Source: a virus (Duplodnaviria > Heunggongvirae > Uroviricota > Caudoviricetes). From it: a DNA stretch of 64,000 nucleotides. Below, in pieces: positions 43,103-45,791 of the stretch (the stretch's first letter is position 1; each line of letters starts with the position of its first letter). Made by a program: the position numbers and the translations under genes. Below the pieces are notes generated by a model. The model was not told where the DNA came from. It worked only from the letters and a program-made list of their open reading frames with translations, and made no database searches. The DNA is taken from IMG/VR virus record IMGVR_UViG_2687453522_000001, one strand, 5' to 3'.

Positions 43103-43291
43103 GTGGTAGTGCACTTTAACATCGGGAGAATAATCGTGTCATCCAAGGTTAATTATGAGTCGCTGGCATCGGTCATGCCGCGTAATGAACAGGAAACAGA
43201 TGCTGTAGTGGACCCTGTAATCGCTGAAATGAATGCTCGCCTGGAGGCTGAATTTGCAGCTGAGAATGAACATACCACCCAGGGCGACTAG
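43103..43291 (+). CDS. Small hypothetical protein
   Basis: 62-aa ORF with plausible spacing; acidic. Confidence 0.3.
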   Translation: MVVHFNIGRIIVSSKVNYESLASVMPRNEQETDAVVDPVIAEMNARLEAEFAAENEHTTQGD

Positions 43292-43895
43292 GACTGTTTT
43301 TTGTGTCGGTAGCGGTCCGTCACTCACTCGTGAGGACTGTGCTGCTATAGAAAAAACTGGCTGTTCAATCATCGCGGTTAACAATTCCTGGCAGATGTTC
43401 GATGACATTTATGCCTTATACGCCGGTGATTTGTCATGGTGGAAGCAATACGGTTCCACCATACCGGGAGGGAGGTTCCGCAAAGTGACAGCCAACCTGG
43501 CGGCGGCGAAATCATTTTCGTTGGAGTACAGGCGATATTGTGGACCGGCGGAAGGGGTAAATAGCGGCGCGCAGGCTATCAGTCTGGCTGCTGAATCAGG
43601 GGCTGAAGTAGTGGTATTAGTCGGCTATGACTGTTCTCTGCAAAACGGCCTTCATTGGCATGGCGCGCACCCTCAAGCCCTACGGAATCCAACGCAGGTG
43701 TCTATTTCAAAATGGCAACAGCAGTTCCTGGATACCCGCAAAAAACACGCAGATTTACATATTTTGAATGCAAGTAGGAGCAGTGCAATTCAATGTTTCC
43801 CAAGAATAAATTTAGAGGCAGTGATCGCGTTATTATCGTCGGCAGTGGCCCAAGCGCCGCAAACTTTGTTGCGCCGCGCGGAGTGCCGATTATAG
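43268..43895 (+). CDS. Rossmann-type protein with GSGPS motif, paralog 1 (DUF115/MptE-like, tentative)
   Basis: About 209 aa from internal ATG; TVFCVGSGPSL...SIIAVNNSW and VVLVGYDCS motifs; paralogous to the next gene. Confidence 0.5.
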
Positions 43896-44419
43896 CGGTC
43901 AATGGGGCCATCGACTGGCTGAACCGCGCTTCTTATTTTTTCACCCTTGATCCATCCCCAGACAATATGCGGCGCGTTGGTCGTGGCCGCCGTCGCCGTG
44001 GTGTTTGTTATTGCATGGCACTACCCGATGTTAAAGAACGTGAAGTCAGAGATGGCGTTCTGTGCTTCCGTCGTGTGGCTGAACGCGGCATGGAGCCAAA
44101 AAATACGAATTCTCCCGAGTGGTGGGCGTGGCGCTGGTCCGCACATTTCGGCCTTTGCGAAGATGAGAATGAAATTGCCAGCGGCAATAGTGCATATGGT
44201 GCTCTGAACCTGGCTTTCCATATCGGATTCAAACATGTAGCTCTGGTGGGCGTTGACGCTACGCAAGAACTACGCGTTCACTCCGGCGGCACGCCAAAAA
44301 ATCTAAGTCACCTGCCTTTGTTATTCCAGTCTGCGCGTGAACAGATTGACGTTGTTTCATGCGGGAAAATGGGAGGTATTCCGCAGATGACTCTTAAAGA
44401 ATGGCTGAAGAATACATGA
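43793..44419 (+). CDS. Rossmann-type protein with GSGPS motif, paralog 2
   Basis: 208-aa ORF; [11 protein letters not shown]...PIIAVNGAI and VALVGVDAT motifs. Confidence 0.5.
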
Positions 44420-45093
44420 TGGCACCCACAATTTATCACCGTATCGACGGTACCAAATACAGGAATGTCTGGGTTGTTGGTGATCTGCATGGTTGCTACA
44501 CCAGACTGATGTCCGAACTCCATCGTGTGGATTTTGACCCGGCGCAGGATTTACTGATATCGGTCGGCGACCTTATCGATCGCGGTACTGAAAATGTCGA
44601 ATGTCTGGAACTATTGCAGATGCCCTGGTTCAGGGCAGTGATGGGGAACCATGAGCGGTTGATGCTCGATGCGTTAAGTCCTGATGGCAACGTGAATAAC
44701 TGGCTAATGAATGGCGGACAATGGTTCTTCATGCTGGACACTGATCAGGAAATATTAGCCAGGGCGCTGGTGGAGCTGGTAAAGCGTCTGCCCTATATCA
44801 TTGAGTTGAACACCGGGCAAGAAACTATCGTTATAGCCCATGCCGACTATCCGGATAATGAATACCAATTCGGTAAGGAGGTGCCGCTTTTCAACGTTGT
44901 CTGGGCGCGCGAGCGTATCAGTGATTCGATGGATGATATTGGTGGCGAAATTTCGGGCGCAGATCGTTTTATCTTTGGTCACACTCCGGTGAAAAGCCCG
45001 AAGACATTCTGGAATCAGCAGTATATCGACACTGGTGCCGTATTTTGCGGAAACCTGACATTGATGAAAGTGAAAGGTGATGGTGCAGCATGA
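44401..45093 (+). CDS. ppp: Ppp, lambda-type Ser/Thr protein phosphatase
   Basis: 230-aa ORF; metallophosphatase motifs GDLHG, GDLIDRG, GNHE, GHT. Confidence 0.85.
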
Positions 45094-45791
45094 AGATTGC
45101 TTTAGTTCTTCGCTCTGGTGGTGACTATAACGCTTCCGATGTGCAGTGGCTGGTTAATCAACTGCCAAAAGACTATGAAATTATTTGCCTGACAGACCTG
45201 AAGTGTTTACATGTACCTGGCGTCAAAGTTATCCCATTGATCAACCAGTGGCAAAAGTGCCGTGGCTGGTGGGCGAAAATCGAGTTGTTCCGACCGGATA
45301 TAACCGATGATCTGTTCTATCTGGATTTGGACACGGTTATTGCCGGTGATATACGCCCAATCCTAGAGCATCCACCAACCAGCTTCACCATGCTTAGGGA
45401 TTTTTACCATCCACAATATCGTGGTAGCGGTGCCCTGTGGATACCAAATAGTGTTAAAGCGCATATCTGGAGTTCATTCTGGCAAGATCCGGAAGGTTGG
45501 ATTTCTCGTTGTGTCACTACTGAGTGCTGGGGTGACCAGGGGTTCTTACGAAAGGTTATGGGCGATGATACACCAGCATTTCAGGATCTGTATCCAGGAT
45601 GGTTTGTAAGTTACAAGGCCGATGTTGTGGAACCTGGTTCAAAATATGCGAGCGCGCGTTACTCCAGGGGGAATGGGGCATTACCAAAAGACTGCCGAAT
45701 AATCTTTTTCCACGGCAAACCGCGACCTCGCGAAGTGTCAGAGGATTGGCTCCCCCTTATCAGCTCATTTTTTGAGCGAGAATCAGAATAA
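45090..45791 (+). CDS. Hypothetical protein
   Basis: 233-aa ORF overlapping the ppp stop by 4 nt. Confidence 0.5.

Follow-up and report, generated by a model that had tools for sequence, protein, structure and literature searches.

What is encoded by an operon of phage P1 whose only label, from genome annotation onward, has been 'putative morphogenetic function', despite the wide use of P1 in genetics? We addressed this question for the copy found in IMG/VR virus record IMGVR_UViG_2687453522_000001 (Caudoviricetes), a 64,000-nucleotide stretch of DNA referred to here as the window. Positions 43000-46000 of the window match P1 (NC_005856, 79359-82359) at 99.7% identity, and the genes highlighted in an original prediction, made from the DNA letters, are the annotated and already known P1 operon pmgN-pmgO-pmgP-ppp-pmgQ. 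That prediction described two paralogs (PmgO and PmgP), a phosphatase (Ppp), and a further 233-amino acid (aa) protein (PmgQ) as a possible small pathway modifying a host or phage macromolecule. Our analysis indicates that PmgO, PmgP, and PmgQ are probably a trio of glycan-building enzymes. The fuller reading, that this P1-type cassette assembles a short glycan on a protein of the virion head, drawing on nucleotide sugars of the host, is one that we hold to be evenly balanced.

To establish how PmgO and PmgP are related, we compared them as single sequences and as families. The two genes are adjacent and overlap as predicted, and their translations contain the predicted motifs (CVGSGPS...IIAVN...VVLVGYD in PmgO and IVGSGPS...IIAVN...VALVGVD in PmgP). 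Pairwise BLASTP aligned only the N-terminal motif (E = 0.003). Family profiles built from 30 PmgO and 34 PmgP homologues, excluding the PmgO-PmgP fusion protein P0051, aligned in hhalign over 161 columns, essentially full length, with 98.2% probability, E = 3e-14, and approximately 23% identity. The proteins are homologous, as proposed, but the divergence is ancient and does not reflect a recent duplication. Four elements were invariant or nearly so in both families: G-x-G-P-S-L, an Asn following strand 2, (T/N)-S-G, and G-x-D. At E <= 1e-3, the family of PmgP (PHROG 2111, E 3e-132), the most conserved of the trio, numbers 539 clusters at 50% identity. In the AlphaFold model, the first 15 residues of the 220-aa PmgO open reading frame (ORF) were disordered, and homologues start near residue 17-22. 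Because these residues are disordered and have no counterpart among the homologues, a shorter start is plausible. Translation may in fact begin at the ATG at 43266, two nucleotides from the predicted 43268.

The earlier guess of a DUF115/MptE-like fold was borne out. Both proteins matched Pfam MptE-like (PF01973), PmgO with 23.4 bits and PmgP with 20.9 bits (E 3.4e-4), below the gathering score of 34.6. The closest folds to the PmgO AlphaFold model were a Maf glycosyltransferase, MptE, and Cst-I. The model has the modified Rossmann fold of Maf and Cst-I/II, which is also common to MptE and thiamine pyrophosphokinase, and sequence homology suggests that PmgP adopts it as well. Single-sequence and profile searches of both proteins against PDB sequences returned nothing significant, so this placement is by fold comparison only. 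A fold search of BFVD gave no characterized relative. PmgO and PmgP are single-domain proteins of approximately 190-210 aa; the flanking flagellin-binding domains of Maf are missing, and 163 of 632 Maf residues align with PmgO.

The positions of the nucleotide-binding motif align to Cst-II residues 3-34 and 122-157, with an E value of only 0.15. Using Cst-II (His188), Maf (E324 and D415), and CbMaf (D272, S334, and D357) as references, we selected catalytic candidates by spacing alone: D66, S111, D133, and H141/H143 in PmgO, and D53, S133, D155, and H173 in PmgP. Taken together, PmgO and PmgP are most likely putative CMP-ulosonic acid transferases (CMP, cytidine monophosphate) of the sialic acid or 3-deoxy-d-manno-oct-2-ulosonic acid (Kdo) type, with a Maf/MptE/GT42 fold.

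Public annotation already labels PmgO 'alpha-2,3-sialyltransferase'. Many PmgO and PmgP homologues in NCBI and UniRef are named 'norphogenetic protein', a misspelling that occurs in the pmgM note of the P1 record and in the RefSeq product name of pmgP, and that looks like label propagation without evidence. We also considered an identity of PmgO or PmgP with the Kdo III transferase WaaZ and rejected it. Matches to TIGR04437 (WaaZ_KDO_III) and PF27901 were faint, and direct comparison with E. coli K-12 WaaZ showed no special closeness.

The third member of the trio, PmgQ, was not left uncharacterized. It has a GT-A fold, and its nearest structures belong to GT8; public databases already name it 'glycosyltransferase'. 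No Pfam family matched at E <= 1, and the gathering score of PF01501 was missed, such that the link to GT8 is visible only by family profile or structure. Among 38 homologues, D79, L80, D81, D149, and P213 were invariant, while G148, Q150, H208, G209, and P211 were nearly so. The DxD motif and the C-terminal His, part of an H-x-x-G-x-x-K-P-W-like motif, align to 'DaD' and to 'hysSnpKPW' / 'HFlGqtKPW' of AgtA and glycogenin, and the motif around D149 corresponds to GDQG in glycogenin and GDtG in AgtA. PmgQ is presumably a GT8-type retaining transferase using a UDP-hexose donor (UDP, uridine diphosphate).

We then asked whether the three genes travel together. In a species-dereplicated genome collection, the full trio was co-located in Pantoea, Pseudescherichia, Zhongshania, Brevundimonas, and Sinomicrobium (Bacteroidota), and thus spans Proteobacteria to Bacteroidota. 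Partial sets comprised PmgO and PmgP at a contig end in Microbulbifer, and PmgP and PmgQ in Methylophilaceae and Longimicrobiales loci. An IMG/VR scan with an alignment headed by the distant Sinomicrobium PmgP yielded non-P1 viral contigs, and all three genes were present in 23 of 25 dereplicated clusters. Natural fusions joined the proteins in several combinations: PmgO-PmgP (P0051), PmgP-PmgQ (P0300 and P0371), and PmgQ-PmgP (P0384 and P0352).

Ppp does not share this association. The protein itself is the lambda-type phosphatase that had been predicted, with matches to Pfam Metallophos (59.4 bits, E 8.7e-16; cut-off 21.5), the NinI-like PHROG 246 (E 5e-113), and the PrpA and PrpB models (E 6e-82 and 1e-71, below their equivalog cut-offs). 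Its translation contains GDLHG, GDLIDRG, and GNHE, corresponding to the GDxHG, GDxxDRG, and GNH(E/D) signature. Nevertheless, Ppp was missing from all 61 non-P1 loci carrying at least one module gene, and from the P1-like Cronobacter phage JK004, in which pmgP and pmgQ are neighbors. The conserved unit is therefore PmgO, PmgP, and PmgQ, into which ppp was inserted in some P1-like phages. The pathway originally envisaged accordingly fits the data for these three proteins but not for the phosphatase.

Additional enzymes in or beside the cassettes indicate the type of chemistry involved. SAM-dependent (S-adenosylmethionine), FkbM-type, and TylF-type methyltransferases were frequent. Others included one Sulfotransfer_2 protein, extra GT8-like, GT-B, and GT-A genes, and two KpsC/KpsS-like (Capsule_synth) matches. 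ORF373 of the Xanthomonas jumbo phage XacN1 (L192, 6630-7946) fuses a TylF-type sugar O-methyltransferase to a PmgQ domain, and in E. coli phage EP_H11 (L188, 7602-8570) PmgP and PmgQ are separated by an inserted GT-B (Glycos_transf_1) gene. This fusion and this insertion show how the assembly line can be extended. Such glycan-tailoring partners argue that PmgO and PmgP are sugar transferases in glycan assembly rather than pyrophosphokinases.

The cassettes are also informative for what they lack. Genes for nucleotide-sugar synthesis, and membrane or export components, were found in none of the cassettes examined. All named hosts are Gram-negative, and all such hosts make CMP-Kdo. As every host makes this donor and the cassettes carry no sugar-nucleotide synthesis genes, CMP-Kdo is the most economical candidate. 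Fold and host range together make a CMP-activated ulosonic acid the most likely donor for PmgO and PmgP. There is precedent for such chemistry on proteins, as Maf enzymes in E. coli BL21 attach Kdo to Ser/Thr by O-linkage, using the host CMP-Kdo pool (10.1101/2020.06.03.131540).

Genomic position points toward the acceptor. The major capsid gene immediately precedes the cassette, and the head-tail connector genes follow it, in HK97-like prophages from Pseudomonas (L185), Gilvimarinus (L183), and Zhongshania (L173); cassette genes occupy the same interval in a Methylophilaceae contig (L175). Pseudomonas phage D3 carries its PmgO homologue (orf6.5/orf7) after the capsid gene orf6. The P7 annotation named hdmA-D, for 'head morphogenesis', by similarity to D3 orf7. 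Many IMG/VR contigs place the cassette between the capsid and head-tail connector genes, in the order portal, protease, capsid, small ORF, PmgO, PmgQ, methyltransferase, PmgP, 230-aa ORF, and HCP. A Pfam census of 150 neighboring proteins from 23 dereplicated clusters was led, besides methyltransferases, by portal (10), HK97 gp10-like (9), gp17 tail completion (7), capsid (6), Clp protease (4), and gp6-like connector (4) proteins. Morons bring their own promoter and terminator; cassette genes abut or overlap their neighbors and leave no room for either. The cassettes of Citrobacter phage phiNP and contig L003 stand at the beginning of the late operon, between Rz and terS. Exceptions were Sinomicrobium and XacN1, where the cassette lies beside ribonucleotide reductase genes.

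Several annotations of these loci merit comment. D3 orf6.5 and orf7 split what looks like one intact 198-aa PmgO-like ORF (AF165214; L189, 5759-6355). In phiNP (OR565852; L187, 6492-7094), an unannotated 200-aa PmgO homologue lies between Rz and a gene labelled 'alpha-2,3-sialyltransferase'. PAJU2 ORF010 (L190, 4974-5543) and its counterpart in Klebsiella phage Eowyn (L193, 2298-2870) are PmgO homologues labelled 'structural protein'; we traced no proteomic source for these labels and gave them no weight. The PmgO-like gene of D3, PAJU2, and Eowyn has as its partner a gene for an unknown protein of 275-296 aa, and this variant includes neither PmgP nor PmgQ. The next gene encodes a Methyltransf_23 enzyme in D3 and PAJU2, and a 206-aa ORF fills that slot in Eowyn.

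Chromosomal copies of the trio in Pseudescherichia and Serratia occur among Big_1/invasin inverse autotransporter adhesin genes. In Pseudescherichia L182 (2236-18532), in L167-L171, and in Serratia plymuthica L004, the trio is interleaved with five or six Big_1/invasin/IAT_beta genes, and in L182 PmgO is immediately downstream of a gene for a 1169-aa invasin-like protein. This arrangement suggests an adhesin glycosylation island, and these neighbors point to protein acceptors. In phages, a virion (head) protein is the most likely acceptor, although we place its probability slightly below even. Capsid proteins encoded next to cassettes end in short Ser/Thr-rich tails (GSLSES, GSLTAS, and GNLSGAS), which may provide a lead to the acceptor. 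Some cassettes have, upstream of PmgO and downstream of the major capsid gene, a small ORF of 125-129 aa (L183, 9166-9555; L204, 5716-6105; L208, 5810-6187). These ORFs contain Pro/Thr repeats (TEPTEPTEP...) or are rich in Ser, Thr, Ala, and Gly, and their products could be glycan acceptors. The L183 ORF gave a faint match to the PhiKZ capsid decoration protein gp35.

A model consistent with these observations is as follows. PmgO, PmgP, and PmgQ would constitute a soluble, cytoplasmic three-enzyme glycosylation cassette that is a mobile module of tailed phages infecting Gram-negative bacteria. PmgO and PmgP would transfer an ulosonic acid, probably Kdo, from its CMP donor, and PmgQ would add a hexose from a UDP-sugar. 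The short glycan might be further methylated or sulfated in other phages. Modification of the head protein would take place in the cytoplasm during lytic growth. P1 would use the cassette on its own virion once the repressor C1 is inactivated. In a parallel case, capsids of mycobacteriophages are reported to be glycosylated by phage-encoded transferases (Freeman 2023, as cited in PMC11256854).

Several observations weigh against this model. Deletion or CRISPR interference (CRISPRi) of P1 pmgO, pmgP, ppp, and pmgQ in laboratory strains left plating normal and antirestriction intact (PMC10695390, PMC9024508). The original prediction had regarded dispensability without a phenotype as counting against an enzymatic pathway, and these results go part of the way, for plating and antirestriction in laboratory E. 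coli. Reports of capsid or tail glycans in P1, D3, PAJU2, or phiNP were not found in the literature searched. The annotated promoter of the P1 operon is an early one, and the operon sits among morphogenetic operons away from the capsid gene.

Some of the same observations are compatible with a different target. The trio might act during lytic growth on a host envelope glycoconjugate, such as the inner or outer core of lipopolysaccharide (LPS), enterobacterial common antigen, or capsule. For example, a Kdo or hexose residue might mask or truncate the P1 receptor in the LPS core, sparing progeny from debris or blocking superinfection. The early promoter on the P1 operon favors such a role, and a missing plating phenotype would be expected for it. 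GT8 relatives include the lipooligosaccharide/LPS transferases LgtC and WbbM, E. coli WaaZ belongs to the MptE-like superfamily, PmgP and P0051 match WaaZ_KDO_III faintly, and two cassette neighbors match the KpsC/KpsS family. However, PmgP and PmgO are no closer to WaaZ than to other members of the superfamily (hhalign probabilities of 17% and 11%, respectively). Most phages embed the cassette, with overlapping genes, in the late head operon, which leaves little time for new LPS to reach the surface. The layout is unlike that of conversion morons, the cassettes lack membrane and export components, the P1 operon is off in lysogens, and the chromosomal copies flank adhesin genes rather than LPS genes. 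On balance, we consider an envelope target unlikely. The shared fold also allows PmgO and PmgP to be diphosphokinases of the MptE/thiamine pyrophosphokinase type, which would activate a small molecule or sugar for PmgQ or serve an unrelated nucleotide or cofactor pathway. The loci showed no folate, pterin, or thiamine association, and their neighbors are phage head genes, glycosyltransferases, and methyltransferases, which makes this improbable.

Glycosylation of nucleic acid, either as hypermodification of phage DNA or on RNA, would serve anti-restriction or anti-defense, in line with the defense link suggested in the original prediction. Phage GT-A and GT-B enzymes do hypermodify DNA, and two cassettes adjoin ribonucleotide reductase genes. 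DNA glycosylation requires a partner that generates 5-hydroxymethylpyrimidine (C5-MT/TET or ThyS-like), and the transferases involved are JGT-like or T4-BGT-like (10.1101/2023.12.21.572611 for both enzymes and partner). No such partner occurred among the Pfam-annotated genes of the loci examined or the 25 families shown in the census. P1 deletion mutants keep antirestriction, and a PADLOC scan returned zero matches. P1 DNA, moreover, is not known to be hypermodified, and we judge this explanation very improbable. A four-enzyme pathway that includes Ppp, for instance by dephosphorylating Ser/Thr residues that the transferases then glycosylate, would fit the tight translational coupling in P1 (overlaps of 19 and 4 nt) and the targeting of Ser/Thr hydroxyls by Maf-type enzymes. 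Yet the phosphatase is absent from the 61 non-P1 loci and JK004, and its nearest relatives, lambda NinI and E. coli PrpA and PrpB, stand alone; we give this pathway hardly any credence. Glycosylation of a head protein remains our preferred reading.

The arrangement of the operon in the window is summarized in Table 1. Coordinates were moved by offset from the P1 annotation (NC_005856/AF234172), and ORFs and translations were concordant with them.

Table 1. Features of the pmgN-pmgQ operon and neighboring genes in the window
Feature	P7 name	Position	Strand	Description
pmgL, pmgM		42243-43069		upstream of the cassette
PpmgN		about 43037-43063		predicted sigma-70 promoter beside Oppp (P1 annotation)
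Oppp (Op83)	Op(hdm)	43076..43092	-	C1 repressor operator (P1 annotation by offset)
pmgN	hdmA	43136..43291	+	51 aa, acidic; GTG start, GGGAGA Shine-Dalgarno; PHROG 2350, function unknown
pmgO	hdmB	43233..43895	+	220 aa from first ATG; 209 aa from second ATG (43266); putative ulosonic acid transferase
pmgP	hdmC	43793..44419	+	208 aa; remote PmgO homologue
ppp		44401..45093	+	230 aa; lambda-PP/NinI-type Mn-dependent Ser/Thr protein phosphatase
pmgQ	hdmD	45090..45791	+	233 aa; presumed GT8-type retaining GT-A glycosyltransferase
pap		47428-47934		annotated 'putative acid phosphatase'

Successive genes of the operon overlap, by 59 nt (pmgN/pmgO), 103 nt (pmgO/pmgP), 19 nt (pmgP/ppp), and 4 nt (ppp/pmgQ, ATGA). 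C1 bound at Oppp would hold the operon silent in lysogens, with expression only after induction, during lytic growth. The presence of this operator at the operon promoter argues against lysogenic conversion. In the P1 annotation, pmgL, pmgM, and the late promoter LPpmgL lie further upstream. The operon region contained no RNA family, notable terminator, or composition anomaly.

Among the loci examined, PmgN, PmgL, PmgM, and Ppp were confined to P1-like elements. PmgN occupies the slot directly upstream of PmgO that unrelated small Ser/Thr/Pro-rich ORFs fill in other phages. It was scored as essential by CRISPRi but is reported to be nonessential by deletion (PMC10695390). Both methods classed the downstream genes pmgO to pmgQ as nonessential, so the CRISPRi result is not accounted for by simple polarity. 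PmgM gave a sub-threshold match to VRR-NUC nucleases (E 3e-4), and a Cys-rich part of PmgL resembles a treble clef (VATC, E 0.009). The product of pap matches the PNKP-type HAD phosphatase domain PF25109 (E 7.8e-12), suggesting a nucleic acid 3'-phosphatase or repair role; on this match we rejected Pap as a Kdo-8-phosphate phosphatase.

The genes and the labels 'alpha-2,3-sialyltransferase' and 'glycosyltransferase' were public before this work. We did not find the three-gene module, its fusions and tailoring partners, its location in head gene clusters across phyla, or the exclusion of Ppp in the literature searched. If the cassette glycosylates virions, glycan coats would be shared by mycobacteriophages and by phages that infect Pseudomonas, Enterobacteriaceae, Caulobacter, Xanthomonas, and marine bacteria. 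This would bear on phage therapy, through antibody recognition and serum stability, and on the adhesion and stability of particles. There may also be uses in glyco-engineering, as these small soluble enzymes might serve to put Kdo or hexose on proteins made in E. coli. The broadest generalization holds that many tailed phages of Gram-negative bacteria, including P1, O-glycosylate a head protein with a short, Kdo-containing, often methylated or sulfated glycan, and that some enterobacterial chromosomes do likewise for adhesins. Stated in full, we regard it as doubtful; if true, it would be, within the literature searched, the first virion glycosylation system described for phages of Gram-negative bacteria and the first natural Kdo-protein linkage. 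Should the target prove to be LPS or another molecule, a conserved three-gene module would still be defined and Ppp removed from it.

Comparison with characterized enzymes places the cassette at some distance from each. PmgO and PmgP share at most 15% identity with Maf of Magnetospirillum (PDB 5mu5), a DUF115/MptE-like flagellin nonulosonic acid transferase, and with the Campylobacter GT42 enzymes Cst-I and Cst-II. Unlike these, they form a diverged homologue pair that is accompanied by a GT8 enzyme inside phage structural operons. PmgQ shows 13-16% identity to GT8 members (glycogenin, LgtC, and GlyE) and to the GT8-like Skp1 alpha-galactosyltransferase AgtA (PDB 6mw5/6mw8), but is shorter than these, phage-borne, and accompanied by fixed partners. 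E. coli WaaZ, which uses CMP-Kdo, falls in the same MptE-like superfamily (Pfam E 1.5e-6), and its G-x-D segment aligns with those of PmgP and PmgO. In contrast to them, it is a 283-aa protein of the waa LPS locus, and the profile-profile probabilities given above are matched by a TIGR04437 score of 11.9 bits against a cut-off of 200. Ppp resembles lambda protein phosphatase (NinI), with 64% identity according to the P1 annotation, and differs from NinI, PrpA, and PrpB in its location within a glycosyltransferase cassette, which is peculiar to P1-like phages.

The closest functional parallel is offered by mycobacteriophages (Che8 and relatives; Freeman et al. 2023, as cited in PMC11256854), in which phage transferases likewise draw on host nucleotide sugars. 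There, the glycans are reported on major capsid proteins. In the mycobacteriophage Maravista, the genes are situated near the 3' end of the genome, according to the same source, while relatives of the P1 cassette place theirs in the head gene cluster. The hosts differ as well, with mycobacteriophages infecting Actinobacteria and the P1-type cassette residing in phages of Gram-negative bacteria.

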